DNA of 32,000 nt from Fibrobacter succinogenes subsp. succinogenes S85 (GCF_000146505.1 NC_017448.1:2670001-2702000); one strand, 5' to 3'. Shown: positions 7,334-14,738, numbered from the stretch's first letter. The notes: generated by a model not told the origin, from the sequence alone. Made by a program: numbers and translations.

Positions 7334-7620
7334 AATCTCGATAGTCCAAAAAGGACTAACGTTTTTCTTACATAAGTCGAAAGTTGTGGCTTCACTGCTC
7401 CCGTCCTATTTAAAAATAGATATATATAATTTTCTTACAATGGGCGAATTTTTTGCAAAAAATGTGAATTTATTTTGGAATATAGGGAAGGTGGGAAGGG
7501 GGTGTTTTGGGCTGCTTTGGCGCGGTGGCGCATTGCCGTATTTTTCGCTATTTTCTAAATTTGCTCACGAAAATTTAAAGCCCGATAGTTGGTGCAAGAC
7601 TGCAACGAACTAGGCGAAAA

Positions 7621-7650
7621 TCTCTCGTCTCTCGTCTCTCGTCTCTCGTC
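7621..7650 (+). repeat. heptamer tandem repeat (TCTCTCG) x4 plus a partial unit in the ileS 5' leader
   Basis: Four exact units at 7621-7648 followed by TC. The repeat ends 26 nt before the ileS ATG. Confidence 0.9.
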
Positions 7651-7675
7651 TAGCTATCATATCAGAGGTCAAAAC

Positions 7676-10600
7676 ATGTTTCGTGAAGTAAAGAAAGAAG
7701 AGACCTTCCCGCAGATCGAAGAGCGCGTGCTCGGATTGTGGGACAAGGACGATAGTTTCAAGAAGTCGCTTGACAGCCGTCCGGAAACCGAACCGTATAC
7801 TTTCTATGATGGCCCTCCGTTTGCAACGGGCCTTCCGCACTACGGTCACTTGCTTGCCGGTACCATCAAGGACATCGTTCCGCGTTACTGGACCATGAAG
7901 GGCAAGAAGGTTCCGCGCGGTTTCGGTTGGGACTGCCACGGTCTTCCGATTGAATCTCTCGTGCAGAACGAACTCGGTCTCGCTGGCGTTGCCGAAATCC
8001 AGAAGCTCGGCGTCGACAAGTTCAACGAAACTTGCCGCGGCAAGGTGCTCAAGTACACAAGCGAATGGAAGAAGACCGTTCGCCGCATGGGCCGCTGGGT
8101 CGACTTCGACAAGGGCTACAAGACCATGGACAAAAACTTCATGGAATCTGTGTGGTGGGTGTTCAAGCAGTGCTTCGACAAGGGCCTTATCTACCAGGGC
8201 TACCGCATCCAGCCGTACAGCCCGGCTCTCGCAACTCCGCTTTCGAACTTCGAAACGAACCAGGGCTATAAGGACCGTCAGGATCCGTCTTTGACGCTCA
8301 TCTTCCCGCTTAACACGGATGAAGCCAAGTTCAAGGACACGAGCATCCTCGTGTGGACGACGACCCCTTGGACACTTTATTCCAACTTCTGCATTGTTGT
8401 TGGCCCGGACATGGACTACAACCTTGTGGAACAGGATGGCAAGAAGTACTGGATTGCCGCAAGCCGTACCGCTGCTTACTTCAAGAACCCGAACATCGTT
8501 GATACCTGCAAGGGCTCTGAACTCGTGGGTAAGGACTACGAACCGCTTTCCCGTATCTCCGATGCATTCGTGACGCCGGACCAGCTGTCCCGCCACTACA
8601 AGATTTACCCCGCCGACTACGTGAGTACCGAAGACGGTACCGGCGCCGTGCATACCGCTCCCTCCTTCGGTGAAGAAGACTTCCAGAAGGGTGCTGAACT
8701 CGACCTCGGCCTTTTCGACCCGCTCGATACCGAAGGCAAGTTCACGGACAAGGTCCCGATGTGGAAGGGCCTTGGTGCGAAGGAAGCCGACAAGGAAATT
8801 ATCCGCTTCTTCAAGGAACAGGGCCGCGTGTTCAAGCAGGACACGATCGTGCATAGCTACCCGCACTGCTGGCGTACCGGCGTTCCTCTGATTTACCGCG
8901 CCCTCAAGACTTGGTTCTTGAAGATTGACGCGCCTGTCACAAGCAAGGACGGTGTGACCAAGACTCTGAAGGAATGGATGGTTGAAAACAACCAGACCGT
9001 GAACTGGGTTCCGGACCACATCAAGAACGGCCGTTTCGGCAAGTGGCTCGAAGGCGCTCGCGACTGGAACCTTTCTCGTAACCGCTTCTGGGGTACGCCG
9101 ATTCCGGTGTGGCTCTCTGACGACGGCGACATGATTGCCGTGGGTTCCATCGAAGAACTCCAGCAGCTCACTGGCGTGAAGCTCGATGACTTGCACAAGC
9201 ACTTTGTGGACAAGCTTACCATCGAAAAGAATGGCAAGGTCTACCGCCGCACGCCGGAAGTTTTCGACTGCTGGTTTGAATCCGGTTCTATGCCGTATGC
9301 AAGCCGCCATTACCCGTTTGAAAACAAGGAACTCGTGGAACGCAGCTTCCCGGCAGACTTCATTGCCGAAGGCCTTGACCAGACTCGTGGTTGGTTCTAC
9401 ACGCTGACCGTGCTTTCTAACGCTTTGTTCCAGAAACCGGCTTTCAAGAACGTTATTGTGAACGGTATTATCTTGGCCGAAGACGGTTCCAAGATGAGTA
9501 AGTCCAAGCGCAACTACCCGGACCCGAACGACCTTATTGAACGCACGGGTGCCGACGCCATTCGCTTGTTCATGATCAACTCCGCCGCTTTGAAGGCTGA
9601 AGACCTCCGCTTCAGTGAAGAAGGCGTGAAGGGCATCGTCAAACAGGTGATGTTGCCGCTCTGGAACGCCGTGGCATTCTTTGTCTCTAACCACAACGCT
9701 GATGCTGCCAAGGGCCAGCTCACGTGGAAGCCCGGTCAGGAAGTGAAGTCTGACAACGAACTGGACCGCTGGATGCTTGCAACGCTGCAGGATCTCGCTG
9801 CCAAGGTTGAAGTTGAAATGAAGGCTTACCGCCTGTACAACGTGGTGCCTGCCGTGATTGCCGCGGTTGATGACCTCACGAACTGGTACGTGCGCCGCAG
9901 CCGCCGCCGCTTCTGGAAGAGCGAAAATGATGGTGACAAGAACGCTGCCTACGCAACCATGTACAAGGTGCTCGTAGACTTCTCCAAGATTCTCGCTCCG
10001 TTCCTCCCGCTCCTCGCCGAAGAAATCTACCAGATTCTCGTGCGCGAAGTCGATGCTAACGCTCCGGTGAGTGTACACCTCTGCGAATTCCCGAGTGCTG
10101 ACAAGTCCCTCATGGACGAAAAGCTTGTGGAACGCATCGCCATGGTGCGTGGCATGGTCGAAATGGGTCGCGTGATTCGTGCAACGAACAACGTAAAGAA
10201 CCGTATGCCGATTGCCAGCATGACGGTCGTTGCTCACGGTAACGAAGAAAAGAACGTTGCTGAAACGATGAAGGACTTGATTCTCGAAGAACTCAACGTT
10301 CGCGAAATGAAGTTCCTCGAAGACGAAACCAAGCTTGTGAAACTCTCTGCAAAGCCGAACTTCCTCGCTATCAAGGCGAAGGGTCCGGATTACGCGAAGA
10401 ACATGAAGGTGATTTCCGCGAAGTTGAATTCGTTGACCGTCGACGAAATCAAGGCTCTGCAGAATGGCGAAACCATCAAGTTCGACTTCGGTGAAGTCGG
10501 TGCCGACTGCCTGATGCTCAACCGCATCGTGGCCGACGGCATGGCCGTGGAAGCCAACCAGCACTTCACCGTGGCTCTGGACCTGAAGATCACGGACGAA

Positions 10601-10861
10601 CTCCGCCGCGCCTGCGTGGCCCGCGAACTCGTGAACCGTATCCAGAACCGCCGTAAGGACCAGAACTACGCCATCACCGACAAGATCGAAGTGACGCTGT
10701 TCTCTGCAAGCGAAGTCTTCAAGCAGGCTGTCGCGGAGAACGAGGCTTACATCGCCGGCGAAACTCAGGCCGTGAAGATTGCCTGGGCGGCCGCTGCCGA
10801 TGGCTTGGAAGCGAATGACGCCGACGGCGAAGCATTCAGTTTCACGACCGTTAAGGCATAA
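7676..10861 (+). CDS. ileS: isoleucine--tRNA ligase, type 2 (eukaryote-like) form, intact, carrying C-terminal tail type A
   Basis: Start MFREVKKEETFPQIEERVLGLWDKDDSFKKS (ATG 7676, AGAGG at 7664-7668). Class I motifs are PHYGHLLAG (HIGH) and KMSKSKRN (KMSKS), plus a WCxSR-like region. The protein is 1061 aa. The 7589 start in the ORF track is a leader extension running through the heptamer repeat. Confidence 0.95.
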   Translation: MFREVKKEETFPQIEERVLGLWDKDDSFKKSLDSRPETEPYTFYDGPPFATGLPHYGHLLAGTIKDIVPRYWTMKGKKVPRGFGWDCHGLPIESLVQNELGLAGVAEIQKLGVDKFNETCRGKVLKYTSEWKKTVRRMGRWVDFDKGYKTMDKNFMESVWWVFKQCFDKGLIYQGYRIQPYSPALATPLSNFETNQGYKDRQDPSLTLIFPLNTDEAKFKDTSILVWTTTPWTLYSNFCIVVGPDMDYNLVEQDGKKYWIAASRTAAYFKNPNIVDTCKGSELVGKDYEPLSRISDAFVTPDQLSRHYKIYPADYVSTEDGTGAVHTAPSFGEEDFQKGAELDLGLFDPLDTEGKFTDKVPMWKGLGAKEADKEIIRFFKEQGRVFKQDTIVHSYPHCWRTGVPLIYRALKTWFLKIDAPVTSKDGVTKTLKEWMVENNQTVNWVPDHIKNGRFGKWLEGARDWNLSRNRFWGTPIPVWLSDDGDMIAVGSIEELQQLTGVKLDDLHKHFVDKLTIEKNGKVYRRTPEVFDCWFESGSMPYASRHYPFENKELVERSFPADFIAEGLDQTRGWFYTLTVLSNALFQKPAFKNVIVNGIILAEDGSKMSKSKRNYPDPNDLIERTGADAIRLFMINSAALKAEDLRFSEEGVKGIVKQVMLPLWNAVAFFVSNHNADAAKGQLTWKPGQEVKSDNELDRWMLATLQDLAAKVEVEMKAYRLYNVVPAVIAAVDDLTNWYVRRSRRRFWKSENDGDKNAAYATMYKVLVDFSKILAPFLPLLAEEIYQILVREVDANAPVSVHLCEFPSADKSLMDEKLVERIAMVRGMVEMGRVIRATNNVKNRMPIASMTVVAHGNEEKNVAETMKDLILEELNVREMKFLEDETKLVKLSAKPNFLAIKAKGPDYAKNMKVISAKLNSLTVDEIKALQNGETIKFDFGEVGADCLMLNRIVADGMAVEANQHFTVALDLKITDELRRACVARELVNRIQNRRKDQNYAITDKIEVTLFSASEVFKQAVAENEAYIAGETQAVKIAWAAAADGLEANDADGEAFSFTTVKA
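10287..10326 (+). repeat. left copy of a 40-nt exact direct repeat inside ileS (island-bounding repeat); near-identity continues for about 95 nt more
   Basis: AAGAACTCAACGTTCGCGAAATGAAGTTCCTCGAAGACGA is identical at 10287-10326 and 13607-13646. The next ~95 nt (10327 onward versus 13720 onward) differ at one position, and then divergence rises sharply. Confidence 0.9.
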
Positions 10862-11043
10862 TCAAGGGTGACTACCGCCCGAGGCGAGTGTAGCGCGAGA
10901 ACTTGTTCTCGCATTACCGAGCCGTTGCGGTAGGGCGCCTTGCGCCAAACTCAGGCTAACGCTATCGTGTGGAAGGATTCTGCTGCTGGCTTGCAGGAAT
11001 CTGATGCAGATGGCGAAAAGGTTGCAGTCGAAGCGGTGAAATA
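10861..11043 (+). pseudogene. orphan ileS C-terminal tail fragment (type B), starting at the ileS stop codon and split by element E1
   Basis: ATCAAGGGTGA [E1] AACTCAGGCTAACGCTATCGTGTGGAAGGATTCTGCTGCTGGCTTGCAGGAATCTGATGCAGATGGCGAAAAGGTTGCAGTCGAAGCGGTGAAATAA is collinear with 14146-14251 of the second copy. It would encode IKGETQANAIVWKDSAAGLQESDADGEKVAVEAVK*. It is not in frame with ileS. Confidence 0.85.
10872..10947 (+). mobile_element. structured 76-nt insertion element, copy E1
   Basis: CTACCGC...GCGGTAG forms a 7-bp outer helix. Conserved AGGCGAG and CCGAGCC strands flank an internal helix capped by a CTTG loop (GCGAGAA CTTG TTCTCGC). A 3' hairpin is GGCGC CTT GCGCC. It is inserted in GGTGA^AACTC of type-B tail sequence, with a 1-nt boundary ambiguity. 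Confidence 0.75.
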
Positions 11044-11066
11044 AATAGACTGTTGCTGACAATTGC

Positions 11067-11103
11067 AAAAGGACCCCGGTTTTTACTGAGGTCCTTTTGT
11101 TTA
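11067..11103 (+). terminator. hairpin plus T-run after the ileS tail stack (possibly bidirectional with the XRE gene)
   Basis: AAAAGGACC (11067-11075) pairs with GGTCCTTTT (11090-11098), followed by GTTT. The loop is large (14 nt), so confidence is moderate. Confidence 0.5.
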
Positions 11104-11135
11104 ATCCAAGACAATGGAATGTGGTTTGCTATAAA

Positions 11136-11531
11136 CTATTTGTTGTTGTGTCCGGATACTTTTGTCTTTTTCAGCTGTTGATGCTCTATATGGCGTAAAT
11201 CCAAAAGTTCTGAAAGGTTTATGCCCAAGGCGTTTGCCATCTCAATCAGAGTGACGAGACGAGGATTTCTTGAACCATTAATGGATCTTGTGATTGTTGA
11301 TTTGGTAAGTCTATTCTCGTAAGCAAATTTTTCAATAGTTGCATAACCCGCATCCTGTATTTTCTGTCGGATGTTCTCTCGAATGTGTGTTATAGTCACT
11401 TCGGGGTCTAGCATACTCCCCAAAGCTAGCGAATAGACCTTCTCGTATAGTTGCCGTATGGCAACTGAATTGGAGGGTTGTATTGAAAACATCTCGTGAA
11501 TCAGCCCGAACCGGACGTTGCCGTTTGGCAT
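11136..11531 (-). CDS. XRE-family helix-turn-helix transcriptional regulator
   Basis: C-terminal HTH_3-like segment (FAYENRLTKSTITRSINGSRNPRLVTLIEMANALGINLSELL). The ATG at 11531 (MPNGNV...) is overlapped by an operator palindrome. The track start at 11534 is a TTG one codon upstream. Confidence 0.8.
   Translation of the reverse strand: MPNGNVRFGLIHEMFSIQPSNSVAIRQLYEKVYSLALGSMLDPEVTITHIRENIRQKIQDAGYATIEKFAYENRLTKSTITRSINGSRNPRLVTLIEMANALGINLSELLDLRHIEHQQLKKTKVSGHNNK
11449..11466. promoter_or_regulatory. operator-like palindrome AGTTGCC-GTAT-GGCAACT inside the XRE coding region
   Basis: Perfect 7+4+7 palindrome with the same TTGCC-N4-GGCAA core as the three sites in the divergent intergenic region. 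Confidence 0.55.
11517..11531. promoter_or_regulatory. operator-like palindrome GTTGCC-GTTT-GGCAT overlapping the XRE start codon
   Basis: TTGCCGTTTGGCA at 11518-11530. Its reverse complement is ATGCCAAACGGCAA, which encodes MPNGN. Confidence 0.6.
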
Positions 11532-11591
11532 CAAAAATCGTGGAAAAAAACTTTTTTTGAATGGTTATTGAAAGAAAATTGGTGAAAAAAT

Positions 11592-11609
11592 GGTTGCCGT
11601 TTGGCAACC
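11592..11609. promoter_or_regulatory. operator-like palindrome GGTTGCC-GTTT-GGCAACC
   Basis: Perfect 7+4+7 palindrome in the divergent XRE / small-ORF intergenic region. Confidence 0.65.
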
Positions 11610-11630
11610 GGTAATGTATATTGACTTGGT

Positions 11631-11646
11631 GTTGCCATTTGGCAAT
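11631..11646. promoter_or_regulatory. operator-like palindrome GTTGCC-ATTT-GGCAAT, directly after a TTGACT hexamer
   Basis: TTGCCATTTGGCAA at 11632-11645, with TTGACT at 11621-11626 immediately upstream. This geometry fits a promoter-occluding operator. Confidence 0.6.
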
Positions 11647-11721
11647 TTGTAAGGTAAATACTAGTCGCGAACGTTCCCACACGGCTAGATATAGGATAAT
11701 TGGGGCAAAAAGGATAATAAT

Positions 11722-11907
11722 ATGATTGGATCTGCAATACAGAAGGGCTCGTCCGTTTATGTGTTTAATGAAAAGGGTGTACAAATATGGTCTAGACCAT
11801 CCGATGCACTTATAGGTTTTACATCATCTTCTGTGACCGTAAGAGTGGGAAATAATGCACGTATATATGATGAAAAAGGGGTTCATAAATACACCAAATC
11901 ACTTTGA
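11722..11907 (+). CDS. small (61 aa) hypothetical protein with an internal repeat
   Basis: ATG is preceded by AAAGGAT. The motif is repeated: SSVYVFNEKGVQI and NARIYDEKGVHKY, separated by GFTSSSVTVRVG. It has no TM segment or signal peptide and is transcribed divergently from the XRE gene. Confidence 0.6.
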   Translation: MIGSAIQKGSSVYVFNEKGVQIWSRPSDALIGFTSSSVTVRVGNNARIYDEKGVHKYTKSL

Positions 11908-12028
11908 TTTTTTCTTTTTTTTGTAAACAATTGAAAACGGGTGCAACTTTGTAGCCGTTTTGGAAAATTGTGAGAAAACAAACGGAATCCTTTACAGGAA
12001 AAAACTGACTAAATCATTGGGAGATGCT

Positions 12029-12790
12029 ATGGCAGCAAATGAATCTAGTTATAAAGATTCTCGTGATGGACATGTATATAAAACAGTTTTCATTGGCAAA
12101 CAGGAATGGTTTGCGGAAAATCTTTGTTTTGAAACATTGGATGAATGTTATTCGTATGACCAAACTGATCCCGGAATCCGTGACGAAATTGACGAACAAG
12201 AGGTGGTTGGTGGATATGGATATCTTTACACCATTGAAGCAGCCAAGGAAGCGGTTCCTGATGGCTGGCGTTTGCCTTCGGAGAAAGATTTTATTCAATT
12301 GACTAGAACGGTGGGTGTTCCTAAAATACAAACAATAAAGTTCCTGAGCAAATATTTAAAAGATAGCCTTTTTAATTGTGATAAAAGACGGGATAACGGC
12401 GTTAAGTGCAATCGCATTCAAAGTCCTTGCTGGAACGATGATTTCAAGGACCCTTTTGGTTTTTCTGCGCTTTATAGTGGATATGGAAGTCTTTTCGCAT
12501 CGGAAAAAGATGGATTCCGTGAGGAGTTTTTGAAATTCAAAGGGCGTGGAGGGTATGAGGAAGAAGATATGCATATTGAGGCTCGCTTGTGGATGTCTTC
12601 GGAACGCAATGGAAAACCTGCATATTTCTTTATAGAAGAAGATAGAGTTGGTTTTTGCGAAAAATTTGACAGGTCCTATAAGAAAATATTTTCGGGTGTT
12701 CCTGGCATGAATTTTGTAAACAAAATGGAAGCGATGGTAGAATCTGGTCGGTGCCTTTGTTCCGTTAGGCTAGTTCGCGATATGAAGTAA
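12029..12790 (+). CDS. Fibrobacter succinogenes major paralogous (FISUMP, TIGR02145-type) domain protein lacking a signal peptide
   Basis: Hallmark motifs are YKDSRDGHVYKTVFIGKQEWFAENL, GYGYLYT..A, PDGWRLPSEKDF, FGFSALYSGYG, ARLWMSSE and CSVRLVRD. ATG 12029 has GGGAG 7 nt upstream. The N-terminus MAANESSYKD is not hydrophobic. Confidence 0.8.
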   Translation: MAANESSYKDSRDGHVYKTVFIGKQEWFAENLCFETLDECYSYDQTDPGIRDEIDEQEVVGGYGYLYTIEAAKEAVPDGWRLPSEKDFIQLTRTVGVPKIQTIKFLSKYLKDSLFNCDKRRDNGVKCNRIQSPCWNDDFKDPFGFSALYSGYGSLFASEKDGFREEFLKFKGRGGYEEEDMHIEARLWMSSERNGKPAYFFIEEDRVGFCEKFDRSYKKIFSGVPGMNFVNKMEAMVESGRCLCSVRLVRDMK

Positions 12791-12830
12791 TCATCTCGTA
12801 TTGAAAAGCCTTAAACATATAGAATGCGAA

Positions 12831-13442
12831 ATGAGCGATAATAAAACTGTTCTTCAAGAGTTTGAATACGAGGATAAGTCTTTTTGGATTGAAGCGAAAA
12901 AATTAAAAAAGGTTCCTGGTTATTATAAATGGTGGGCTAAGGAAAAGCTTGTTAAAGAATTGTTGGATTGGTTAGGAAAAGAAGATCCTAAGTTTAAAAA
13001 ACTTGTAAAGTATGAAAAAATGAAGAGGGAGGGACATTTCGAGTATGACAAAACAAATACATATTGTTGCGTCTATGTAGGAAAGTCGGATAACGTTATA
13101 AGAAGAATTGTAGAAAATCATATTTGTGGCTCAATACGTAATTCAACTATGCGTAGGCATTTGGGGTATATTATACAGAACAAGATTACAAATAAATTTT
13201 TGGATAAAAAATTTTTGGAGAATGCTGTTAACGATATTATTCAACAAATGAAGGTGTCCTTTGTTGAGATAGAAAAAGGCCTAGATCAGGAAGAGACTTG
13301 TCAGATAAACAGAAAGTTGCATATTCTGAATGTTAAGAAAAACGATTATGGGGATAATTATTGTTGCCAACAAGCGAAAATGATAAAATGCAAGTTGGAA
13401 AATATGATGGACAGAAATGGGGATTCTGTTAGGAAAATTTAA
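12831..13442 (+). CDS. GIY-YIG superfamily nuclease domain protein
   Basis: PGYYKWWA (UvrC-like GIY strand), FEY-x9-YVGKSDNVIRRIVENH (YIG plus helix), a conserved Arg region (NSTMRRHLGYI) and a distal acidic/Asn pair (VSFVEIEKG...EETCQINRKLHILNVKKN). An alternative TTG start lies at 12801. Confidence 0.65.
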   Translation: MSDNKTVLQEFEYEDKSFWIEAKKLKKVPGYYKWWAKEKLVKELLDWLGKEDPKFKKLVKYEKMKREGHFEYDKTNTYCCVYVGKSDNVIRRIVENHICGSIRNSTMRRHLGYIIQNKITNKFLDKKFLENAVNDIIQQMKVSFVEIEKGLDQEETCQINRKLHILNVKKNDYGDNYCCQQAKMIKCKLENMMDRNGDSVRKI

Positions 13443-13482
13443 ATCTAAAGGACTACAAATTGCGGGTTATGTTCAATTCGCG

Positions 13483-13606
13483 TTAGGGGTAGTGACCCCT
13501 TGGGGCGGCACTGTGGTGCCGTTTTAGGAGGCGGGTGACGAGCGAAGCGATGACGGCTGCCCCTAAAATATAGCTCGACCCACGTAGTGGGGAACGCCCA
13601 AAAGAA
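13483..13606 (+). other. hairpin-dense junction segment between the island cargo and the displaced ileS fragment (candidate structured RNA or recombination site)
   Basis: Three perfect hairpins are present. They are AGGGGT-AGTG-ACCCCT (13485-13500), CGGCAC-TGTG-GTGCCG (13506-21) and CCCAC-GTA-GTGGG (13579-91). Competing long-range pairings include TTTTAGG (13522-28) with CCTAAAA (13562-68), and GGGGCGGC (13502-09) with GCTGCCCC (13556-63). Confidence 0.4.
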
Positions 13607-14251
13607 AAGAACTCAACGTTCGCGAAATGAAGTTCCTCGAAGACGACAAATGCGTAAGGCGAGAGTCGCGACCGTGCTTGCATGGGCATGACCGAGCCTA
13701 GCATTTGGTACGAAGTGCAAACCAAGCTTGTGAAGCTCTCTGCAAAGCCGAACTTCCTCGCTATCAAGGCGAAGGGTCCGGATTACGCGAAGAACATGAA
13801 GGTGATTTCCGCTAAGCTCAACAGCCTTACGGTTGATGAAATCAAGGCTCTCCAGGCTGGCGAAACCATCAAGTTCGAATTCGGTGAAGTTGGTGCTGAC
13901 TGCTTGATGCTCAACCGCATCGTTGCCGACGGCATGGCTGTGGAAGCCAACCAGCACTTCACTGTGGCTCTGAATTTGAAGATCACGGACGAACTCCGCC
14001 GCGCCTGCGTGGCTCGCGAACTCGTGAACCGCATCCAGAACCGCCGTAAGGACCAGAACTTTGCAATCTCAGACCGTATCAGCATTGAACTTTATTCTGA
14101 AAGCGAAGTGCTGAAGCAGGCTGTGAAGGAAAACGAATCTTACATCAAGGGCGAGACGCAGGCTGACGCTATCGTGTGGAAGGATTCTACTGCTGGTTTG
14201 CAGGAATCTGATGCAGATGGCGAAAAGGTCTTCGTCGAAGCTGTAAGATAA
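13607..14251 (+). pseudogene. ileS: displaced second copy of the ileS 3' end (last ~190 codons, type-B tail), split by element E2
   Basis: Collinear with 10287-10861. The first ~135 nt are nearly identical, then many differences are synonymous (for example KLNSLTVDEIKALQ is retained). The tail diverges to ...ESYIKGETQADAIVWKDSTAGLQESDADGEKVFVEAVR*. It has no 5' part of the gene, and the 73-nt E2 breaks the frame. Confidence 0.9.
13647..13719 (+). mobile_element. structured 73-nt insertion element, copy E2
   Basis: CAAATGC...GCATTTG forms the outer helix, with AGGCGAG and CCGAGCC strands, an apical CCGTG CTTG CATGG hairpin and a 3' hairpin GTAC GAA GTGC. It interrupts GAAGACGA^AACCAAGC, a sequence that is continuous in the intact ileS at 10326/10327. 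Confidence 0.85.
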
Positions 14252-14252
14252 T

Positions 14253-14490
14253 TTCATTGCAAGCGACAACCTCACAAGGCGAGAGCAGCGGCCACGCTTG
14301 CGTGGGCATTGCCGAGCCGAAGAGGTTGGGCACAAAGTGCCAAGTCTTCAAGCAGGCCGTCGCGGAGAATGAAACTTACATTGCGGGAGAGACGCAGGCT
14401 GTCGCCATCAAGTGGGCTGCCGTTGCCGATGGCTTGGAAGCGAATGACGCCGACGGCGAGGCCTTCAGCTTCACGACGGTAAAAGCGTAA
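14253..14490 (+). pseudogene. orphan ileS C-terminal tail fragment (type A'), starting 1-2 nt after the type-B stop and split by element E3
   Basis: TTCATTGCAAGCGA [E3] AGTCTTCAAGCAGGCCGTCGCGGAGAATGAA...ACGGTAAAAGCGTAA is collinear with ileS 10698-10861. It would encode FIASEVFKQAVAENETYIAGETQAVAIKWAAVADGLEANDADGEAFSFTTVKA*. Confidence 0.85.
14267..14342 (+). mobile_element. structured 76-nt insertion element, copy E3
   Basis: CAACCTC...GAGGTTG forms the outer helix, with AGGCGAG and CCGAGCC strands, an apical CCACG CTTG CGTGG hairpin and a 3' hairpin GGCAC AAA GTGCC. It interrupts GCAAGCGA^AGTCTTC, which is continuous in the intact ileS at 10713/10714. Confidence 0.85.
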
Positions 14491-14511
14491 CTCGAAAAAA
14501 TAAAAAATCTG

Positions 14512-14548
14512 AAAAAACGCTCTTTCCTTGCGAAAGGGCGTTTTTTTT
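14512..14548 (+). terminator. intrinsic terminator closing the ileS-derived block
   Basis: CGCTCTTTC (14518-26) pairs with GAAAGGGCG (14532-40) in 9 bp including one G.T. The loop is 5 nt and a T8 run follows at 14541-48. Confidence 0.8.
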
Positions 14549-14738
14549 GTTCAGATTTTCAAATCAGTTTACTTTTTCTTTTTGTTTTTCGATAATAATT
14601 ATGCGTATATTAGCATATATGCACCAGGCGTGCGTGGAAGGGGCCTGATTTTAGGGGACCTGGGGGAGCATCGTCGAAAATGGTGAAATTGCCGATTATG
14701 ATGGAAAAACGGCGTTTTTATTTAAAAAGGAGTCCAAT

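Follow-up and report, generated by a model that had tools for sequence, protein, structure and literature searches.

The stretch of DNA analyzed here (the window) comprises 32,000 nt of Fibrobacter succinogenes subsp. succinogenes S85 (NC_017448.1, positions 2670001 to 2702000). It carries the essential gene ileS, followed by silent fragments of the same gene and, inserted into these fragments, by three copies of a short folded repeat that we call E (E1, E2, and E3). Our data show that E belongs to a previously undescribed, abundant family of ~75-base folded repeats in Fibrobacter genomes. The gene and the three copies are located as follows, with positions counted from the first nucleotide of the window and bit scores taken from a covariance model built from 13 family members.

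7589 to 10861, plus strand: intact ileS, an open reading frame (ORF) of 1090 amino acids with the Pfam domains tRNA-synt_1, Anticodon_1, and DUF5915; its last ~33 residues are of the C type, ending in DADGEAFSFTTVKA and the stop.
10872 to 10947, plus strand: E1, with outer helix CTACCGC/GCGGTAG, the conserved core, the 3' hairpin GGCGCCTTGCGCC, and a terminal A (79.8 bits).
13647 to 13719, plus strand: E2, with outer helix CAAATGC/GCATTTG, the commonest helix type of the family (70.9 bits).
14267 to 14342, plus strand: E3, with outer helix CAACCTC/GAGGTTG and the 3' hairpin GGCACAAAGTGCC (84.1 bits).

All three copies lie on the ileS sense strand, share the core AGGCGAG...CCGAGCC, and align with 45 invariant columns. 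In their common fold, a 7-bp outer helix leads into a GGC/GCC helix beside a 2x2 G.A/A.G loop, followed by a short helix with a bulge and an apical stem with a CTTG loop, while the 3' hairpin stands separately. Compared with shuffled sequences, the folds have z-scores of -4.8, -3.2, and -5.2, and the complementary strand folds more weakly in each of the three cases. The pattern AGGCGAG-N(20-45)-CCGAGCC was found three times in the window versus 0.00 times expected from shuffles, and the next best covariance-model match in the 32 kb scores only 10.8 bits.

A scan for this exact pattern, which took one genome per species, returned at least 120 loci (designated by L numbers), of which about 92 are Fibrobacter, Fibrobacteraceae, or Fibrobacterales metagenome-assembled genomes (MAGs), often with several contigs per genome. 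Among the matches listed, the remainder are GC-rich chance occurrences that lack the fold, together with two copies from MAGs that carry the labels Alistipes and Bacteroidaceae. These two (L107, 7530-7603, and L115, 304-377) are near-identical to each other and weaker (30-35 bits), and they represent either mis-binned Fibrobacter contigs or a spread of the family beyond Fibrobacterota. The covariance model identified 141 copies within the 92 Fibrobacter/Fibrobacteraceae loci and a further 59 in a rumen set of 80 ileS loci (L218-L297) taken from metagenome contigs that cover the ileS 3' end.

The base pairing of E is maintained across the family. In the model-fitted alignment, standard pairs occupy 93.7% of cells versus 64.1% after shuffling, two-sided changes occur at 20 of the 22 pairs, and the covariation score is 0.657 versus 0.165 for shuffled alignments, falling to 0.03-0.08 when the partners are slid by 1 to 3 columns. 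A plain MAFFT alignment of 40 copies gave 95% paired cells in the inner helices versus 74.5% shuffled, the invariant AGGCGAG, GCG, CAT, and CCGAGCC columns of this set being partly imposed by the search pattern with which it was collected. The fold is also specific to one strand, given that the tandem G.A pairs exist on that strand only and a G.T wobble is kept in 135 of 137 copies. A reading of the window made from the sequence alone (the sequence-only reading) had proposed three copies with a shared, strand-specific fold and compensatory base changes, and each of these proposals is borne out, the last of them family-wide.

The family members are about 73-90 nt long and consist of two hairpins that are not alike, i.e., a 62-nt composite 5' hairpin and a 3' hairpin with a 5-8-bp stem and a GAA loop. 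The conserved loop of the former is formed by A-GGC-GA-G on the 5' side and C-GA-GCC on the 3' side, which together give the GGC/GCC helix and tandem sheared G.A pairs. Beside it, the inner short helix has two freely covarying adjacent pairs (seven different complementary combinations were found), the near-invariant G.T wobble, and a C/A mismatch, whereas the apical stem is variable and usually capped by a CTTG loop of the G(CUUG)C type. The 3' hairpin follows the outer helix after 0-2 nt in 63 of 81 copies, very frequently has a C-GAA-G loop, and is itself followed by (C/A)A. These modules are reassorted, since E1 and the element at L202 have one core with different helices and hairpins, and orthologous copies at asd keep the helix and flanks while ~10 of 32 core positions differ.

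Comparison with known RNA families supports the earlier impression that E was unrecognised. No Rfam 15 family matched the 32 kb at its gathering score, and none overlapped E1 to E3 at an E value of up to 10 in a scan of positions 10600-14700; the models covered include those of hammerhead, twister, pistol, hatchet, HDV-like, and hairpin ribozymes as well as known Fibrobacter and rumen motifs. A scan of positions 13440-13730 likewise gave only chance-level matches (at most 19.9 bits versus gathering scores of at least 35). ARAGORN detected no tRNA or tmRNA genes in the window, and no reverse transcriptase was found nearby; a tRNA-like or retron-like origin was therefore rejected. A phage origin was rejected as well, because two scans of viral contigs gave chance-level matches without the fold, although the gap range of the first scan excluded the true spacing. 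The searchable literature contained no relevant account of a Fibrobacter repeat or of an ileS integration site.

Removal of E1, E2, or E3 restores ileS-like sequence. For E2, positions 13607-13646 are 100% identical to ileS 10287-10326, and after the element ileS resumes at 10327 with 86% identity. The same insertion points occur filled and empty in natural alleles. At ileS site 4 (GGTGA^AGC), L269 and L277 are empty and L294 and L280 are filled, with identical fragment, junction, and downstream sequence. Site 2 (GACGA^AAC) is filled in the window and in seven other loci, including L226, L232, L258, L288, and L296, whereas the silent fragment lacks E in L222 and L225 and the active gene is empty there too (10326/10327). 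A third pair concerns the ileS stop codon, where the element is absent from L228 and present in L262, again with identical downstream sequence. The element alone distinguishes filled from empty alleles, with no target duplication, although the position of a single A is ambiguous. Since both states occur at one nucleotide, E is a discrete insertion, and the claim of clean insertions in silent ileS fragments stands.

The target is short. Of 81 copies, 75 have A at position -1, whereas position -2 is G in 40, A in 24, C in 16, and T in 1. Family-wide, the sequence after the 3' hairpin is (A/C)A(A/T), and gene-derived sites read RRYGA^A(R). In addition, one site can receive different types of E (the CTACCGC and CAACCTC types both occur at site 1), and one type can occupy two sites (CAACCTC at sites 1 and 3). 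The E1 type was found at the identical site in four metagenome loci (its stub is kept in L232, L236, L252, and L256), and the E3 type occurs at the site of E3 in L281 and L288 and at another ileS site in nine loci. Collectively, E is a discrete unit that inserts precisely between RA (mostly GA) and A, in one orientation and without target-site duplication.

Conserved loop nucleotides amid variable helices, a fixed dinucleotide at the boundaries, and the occurrence of some copies in tandem arrays of 78-92 nt units would also suit a small self-cleaving or self-ligating, retrozyme-like ribozyme, whose cleavage at CA^A would process read-through ileS transcripts to unit-length RNAs. We regard this as highly improbable: no Rfam ribozyme model matched even at an E value of 10, the fold is one hairpin plus another with no junction or pseudoknot detected, and presence or absence at the DNA level is explained without RNA catalysis.

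The sequence-only reading had further suggested that E is specific to ileS and to glutamate codons, and neither suggestion held. More than a hundred other places per Fibrobacter DNA sample contain copies, among them valS, a radical-SAM gene, asd, promoter-proximal positions, and arrays. At each gene-internal site found, E follows position 2 of a GAA or GAG codon read in frame; ileS has four such sites, and valS, the radical-SAM gene, the L183 gene, and asd have one each. Nevertheless, YGAAR contains an in-frame GAA in 211 of its 291 occurrences (72.5%) in the genes of the window, and seven to eight in-frame sites are therefore unsurprising. A YGA^AR DNA target combined with codon usage is thus enough to explain the glutamate-codon phase, and the family-wide flank is RA^...A. 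A codon-aware insertion by ribosomal A-site cleavage (at stop codons and behind base 2 of GAA), RNA ligation, and reverse transcription was rejected on the same count and because it needs two diverged alleles per cell.

When ORFs of 100 or more amino acids were considered, 22 of ~85 copies were positioned between -11 and +17 nt relative to a stop codon on their own strand, versus 1-3 in the mirrored arrangement. In the rumen ileS loci, 28 of 28 matches at or adjoining ileS or its fragments are on the ileS sense strand, as are 52 of the 59 matches when weaker and more distant ones are included. Some copies alter the encoded protein end. At asd (L156, L175, and L192), E truncates the ORF, whose last codons and stop now come from the 5' strand and linker of the element (...GGG GA/G ATG CTC TAA, with the slash at the junction), and the displaced native end stands after the 3' hairpin. 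In genomes other than that of the window, the stop codon of the active ileS can be overlapped by a copy that encodes the terminal K-A-stop anew (GTC A/AA GCC TAG), and the third codon positions and the opposite strand of the helix co-vary among alleles. Consequently, the statement that no copy lies in the intact gene is correct for the window but not elsewhere.

These observations raise the alternative that the main role of E is that of a functional RNA element in 3' untranslated regions, which would, for example, bind a protein through its tandem-G.A loop or act in processing or stabilization, and which would be selected at gene ends with mobility being secondary (the two may coexist). Besides the sense-strand bias and the position at or just after stops, the near-invariant loop nucleotides and G.U wobble amid freely covarying stems and the G(CUUG)C-type apical loop would fit such a role, as would the retention of the asd copy in three species and of the ileS stop-overlapping copy in many diverged alleles, where compensatory changes preserve both the K-A-stop coding and the pairing. 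However, many copies lie in tandem arrays or heptamer tracts far from gene ends, and alleles without E appear fully functional. One subfamily lies antisense in front of divergent genes, a position at which transcription of the sense strand of E is improbable. Moreover, the C-GAA-G loop of the 3' hairpin is that of the classic, very stable DNA mini-hairpin d(GCGAAGC). We therefore treat an RNA role as a tentative and, on balance, rather unlikely primary function.

The antisense subfamily has the outer helix ATTTAGTA/TACTAAAT and lies 10-20 nt upstream of the starts of divergent genes (L100, 374; L148, minus strand, 625-696; L159, L177, L187, L209, and L215). On the strand of the gene, its helix reads TACTAAATTTG, which we take to match the Bacteroidetes-type -7 promoter motif TAnnTTTG, and a direct repeat of the helix strand and linker then follows. 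With regard to the heptamer tracts, 1.27 Mb of Fibrobacter loci contain 112 tandem arrays with a period of 7 nt versus ~20-30 for each of the periods 6, 8, 9, 10, and 11 (e.g., L151 around 7600, L137 6795-6887, and L113 5480-5629), with AGACGAG, TGGTTAG, and GTAGGAA as recurrent units. Twenty-five of the 112 arrays are at most 60 nt from an E core, against ~2.6 expected, and the commonest unit, AGACGAG, is one mismatch from the AGGCGAG of E.

The 5' helix strand resembles the displaced sequence at the ileS stop and at asd, and direct repeats of the 5' strand and linker follow 19 of 81 copies versus 2.5 expected, about half of them being the next unit of a tandem array. The idea that the outer helix is a guide matching the target was not adopted, as the resemblance is missing from E1 to E3 and from the insertions at sites 4 and 2.

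The sequence-only reading had not noted that the ileS fragments are displaced gene ends at a hotspot of islets. Besides intact ileS and the three E copies, the region contains the following features.

10862 to 10871, plus strand: 10-nt stub TCAAGGGTGA that adjoins the active stop codon and stems from a B-type ileS allele; its last two bases are the GA of the insertion site.
10948 to 11046, plus strand: R_A, a silent ileS 3' fragment with the B-type end ETQANAIVWKDSAAGLQESDADGEKVAVEAVK and stop; it continues the stub across E1 and is 88.5% identical to 14156-14251.
11136 to 13442: AT-rich islet cargo, with genes assigned by Pfam.
11136 to 11534, minus strand: helix-turn-helix (HTH) regulator, cargo.
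11960 to 12790: Fib_succ_major protein, cargo.
12801 to 13442: protein with a GIY-YIG_2 nuclease domain, the last cargo gene, ~30 nt before S.
13475 to 13606, plus strand: S element of ~130 nt, with a GCGTT/AACGC closing helix around four hairpins, forming the right end of the islet and abutting duplicated ileS.
13607 to 13646, plus strand: U2, 40 nt with 100% identity to active ileS 10287-10326 (amino acids 900-913), the start of a long target duplication.
13720 to 14251, plus strand: R_B, a silent ileS fragment (amino acid 913 to the stop) with a B-type end, a displaced former 3' end, 86% identical to ileS 10318-10770.
14252 to 14266, plus strand: 15-nt stub TTTCATTGCAAGCGA that adjoins the R_B stop and stems from a C-type allele (compare ileS 10699-10713, GTTCTCTGCAAGCGA).
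14343 to 14490, plus strand: R_C, a silent ileS fragment with a C-type end, the oldest displaced end, 81.6% identical to ileS 10710-10861.
~14505 to 14548: terminator-like stem-loop and T-run after R_C, apparent in a chance Thr_leader alignment.

The last ~33 residues of IleRS exist in two unrelated versions, QAVKIAWAAAADGLEANDADGEAFSFTTVKA and QANAIVWKDSAAGLQESDADGEKVAVEAVK, each followed by the stop (10762-10861 versus 10948-11046 and 14156-14251, and in the 80 metagenome loci). Among rumen Fibrobacter populations, the B-type end (...DADGEKV.VEAV[KR]) and the C-type end swap the active and silent positions. Differences between active and silent ends are mostly synonymous, which indicates that the silent ends were functional in other lineages until they were displaced. 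Each silent fragment begins immediately after the preceding stop codon, the left junction being exactly there in every fragment, and the junctions are identical in loci without E (L269/L277 and L222/L225).

The large fragment (ileS amino acid 900 to the stop) flanks cargo that varies between genomes. Elsewhere this position is occupied by a DpnII system with two methylases and a DndB-like gene, an Eco57I-like enzyme, PIN-like genes, or Fib_succ_major proteins, and the GIY-YIG_2 gene of the window was not encountered again in the remaining islets examined. Long direct repeats of the ileS end surround the islets, both in the window (10287-10861 versus 13607-14251) and in L222, L225, L226, L232, L258, L265, and L272. 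On the left, the cargo starts at the stop codon of a complete ileS end; on the right, the boundary is S, abutting the 40-nt ileS duplicate. This duplicate, U2, is nearly invariant beside S in all loci, with or without E2, and it is possibly an att-like core. No integrase domain was detected among 20 ORFs scanned around ileS loci. Taken together, the ileS 3' end is a hotspot of islets with variable cargo, often defence genes, inserted with a long duplication.

The S element is kept in at least 10 ileS loci despite different cargo and measures ~130-250 nt across loci. Of its 42 predicted pairs, 12 show compensatory changes, its long hairpin is variable but covarying, its ends are conserved (GCGTTAGGGATAGTGACCCC on one side and an A-rich end with ATATAGCCCGACCCACGAAGTGGGGAACGCCC on the other), and it has no Rfam match. 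Further occurrences, covariance-model matches included, are found at L222 5866-5997, L232 6250-6381, L123 6507-6641 (minus strand), L219 487-634, L279 1854-2000, and L264 11787-11953, among others. Its observed targets are ileS amino acid 900, ileS amino acid 555, the ileS terminator (L228 and L244), and another gene (L123). Copies of E are sometimes located inside S (L259, L267, and L277).

Two further observations concern this region. The arrays are later worn down by deletions; at L222 2371-2440, a deletion fuses the AGGCGAG of E to ileS GGCGAGGCATT, with most of E and ~60 nt of the silent fragment gone, which is an example of microhomology-mediated decay of an array. In the cargo of the window, the minus-strand HTH gene has four copies of a palindromic, operator-like TTGCC-N4-GGCAA (gttgccgtatggcaac, gttgccgtttggcatc, ggttgccgtttggcaacc, and gttgccatttggcaat; 11449-11646) at and upstream of its 5' end, and two of the four fall within the ORF as listed.

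An arrangement of active end, stop, short stub, E, and silent diverged end also occurs at L148 3300-3680 (valS), L125 500-720 (radical SAM/SPASM), and L183 (minus strand, around the E at 1851-1914); the active and silent valS ends are 74% identical in DNA and share 30 of 36 residues. This layout prompted a general cassette model, in which a replacement end, a stub, and E would move together. In its full form, E would be an attC-like folded recombination site at which a recombinase acting in trans inserts or exchanges such gene-end cassettes at RA^A in essential genes like ileS and valS, thereby creating the fragment boundaries. E indeed lies 8-40 nt from the start of a silent fragment in ileS (four sites), valS, the radical-SAM gene, and the L183 gene; tiny end-stub-E units are strung together in twos or threes (L252, L232, L266, and L286); sites are shared in reciprocal B- and C-type arrangements; and the conserved unpaired bases, variable stems, single strand, and location beside stop codons are all attC-like. 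The general cassette model was nevertheless rejected. Junctions exist without E (L269/L277 versus L294, and L222/L225 versus L226), the allele type does not change between the stub and the fragment beyond E, so that E interrupts a contiguous fragment, and in L294 and L280 the active gene is B-type throughout rather than chimeric at the E site as the model predicts (these two loci look like L266 minus its first unit by deletion). As the attC R''/R' consensus and an integrase among the 20 neighbouring ORFs are lacking as well, we consider an attC-like site improbable.

A related reading is that E, perhaps together with S, is the folded recognition site of a trans-acting recombinase or nuclease that both moves E and replaces ileS and valS 3' ends. 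This would be a structure-guided exchange of gene ends for foreign alleles and defence-gene islets, integron-like but with no integrase in the locus. Consistent with such an exchange, E stands near fragment starts, junctions fall exactly at stops, the preferred target GGCGA^ resembles the AGGCGA-G motif of E itself, and a few RRYGA^A sites are reused by different E types and by cargo junctions. We give this reading, too, only a slim chance.

With moderate confidence, we propose instead that E is probably a small non-autonomous hairpin transposon of the REP/PATE type, mobilized in trans by an enzyme. E has a structure-constrained single-strand fold, a precise and oriented insertion at RA^A without duplication, many polymorphic copies, and modular reassortment. 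Because the insertion behaviour and the asymmetric hairpin ends fit it, transposition may proceed via a single-stranded intermediate ("peel-and-paste"), as in IS200/IS605-type elements, PATEs, and REPs moved by RAYT. The mobilizing enzyme would recognise E by its conserved loop and its hairpins and not by the sequences of its helices. The DNA-type GAA loop of the 3' mini-hairpin would agree with a single-stranded DNA intermediate. The clustering on the sense strand after stops could reflect tolerance of insertions there as well as the excess of target motifs (in the window genes, YGAA on the sense strand outnumbers YGAA on the antisense strand 2.5-fold) and, more speculatively, exposure of the non-template strand where translation ends. 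At ileS, each islet event would leave the previous gene end behind as a silent fragment. Such fragments would lie on the transcribed strand and be untranslated; they are rich in YGAA and begin right after the active stop, and the three copies landed there. E is thus a new small mobile element that landed in discarded ileS ends and is not specific to ileS.

Several points weigh against a REP/PATE-type transposon. We found no transposase and no recurrent recombinase-like ORF beside E copies, and tblastn with an IS200 TnpA query, which makes for a weak test, returned nothing at an E value below 5 in the 1.27 Mb of Fibrobacter loci. The only recurrent neighbours of E are the abundant Fib_succ_major paralogues, whose distance and orientation are not fixed. 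IS200/IS605 elements have two ends that resemble each other; the two hairpins of E do not. The sense-strand bias exceeds what targeting of a replication strand predicts and fits an RNA role, and at asd the species have the helix in common but not the core, which points to selection or to local gene conversion and not only to the decay of dead copies. Lastly, the distance of 8-40 nt between E and the 5' start of a silent fragment recurs in at least seven independent cases, and a preference for positions after stops explains it only in part.

Fibrobacter is a major rumen fibre degrader whose mobile DNA is poorly described. As a high-copy element with a clear structural signature and natural filled and empty alleles, E offers a tidy system for seeking a new structure-specific DNA transposition activity, probably one that uses single strands, or else a new protein-binding RNA motif. 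It also matters for annotation, in that copies overlap stops, re-encode C-termini, and mark pseudo-fragments of essential genes. In addition, E led to the ileS 3' hotspot, where cargo including restriction-modification genes is swapped with long end duplications beside a second unannotated structured element.

The behaviour of the ileS islets, as distinct from E, can be compared with that of restriction-modification genes that insert with long target duplications (Furuta et al. 2010, PMC2853133). As in that account, the islets have low-G+C cargo, often restriction-modification genes, no integrase or transposase, and long direct repeats overlapping a gene 3' end. They differ from it in that the duplication covers up to 575 nt of the end of an essential gene, its two copies represent diverged alleles, arrays of ends build up through successive events, and the right boundary carries S (~130 nt).

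E itself shares features with several known classes of small repeats. Like integron attC sites, it is folded and strand-specific, has variable paired sequence with conserved structure and unpaired bases, lies at or overlaps the upstream stop, and occurs in arrays. Unlike them, it has no RYYYAAC/GTTRRRY boxes (the outer helices contain no GTTRRRY), no IntI or attI was seen at the loci examined, the units between copies are mostly not ORF cassettes, and E is present or absent as its own unit. Correia elements of Neisseria, RUP, BOX, ERIC, and the Rickettsia palindromic elements are also small structured repeats at gene ends, and like E they can change C-termini or supply stops and are recombination substrates. 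However, those of known mechanism among Correia elements and similar miniature inverted-repeat transposable elements (MITEs) have terminal inverted repeats and a duplication of TA or other sequence, and E has neither. The extra 3' hairpin after the outer helix makes its ends asymmetric, and no duplication of 2 bp or more is seen at the ileS sites, which sets it apart from classical MITEs.

The closest resemblance is to REP/BIME-RAYT systems and PATEs. Like these, E is short and non-coding, is present in hundreds of copies, forms imperfect hairpins with conserved unpaired bases, and lacks transposon-type terminal inverted repeats and target duplication. It is likewise strand-specific beside a short fixed motif, inserting precisely 3' of that motif in one orientation (position -2 is G, A, or C in 80 of 81 copies), and it is enriched just downstream of genes and in tandem clusters. 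It differs from them in having no sequence or structure resemblance, no GTAG motif, and no linked HUH transposase, and its orientation follows gene sense very tightly. The small, structured, non-autonomous repeat is therefore a known kind of element, but the architecture of E, a unit of two dissimilar hairpins with a tandem-G.A loop, and its target, merely RA^A, are new.

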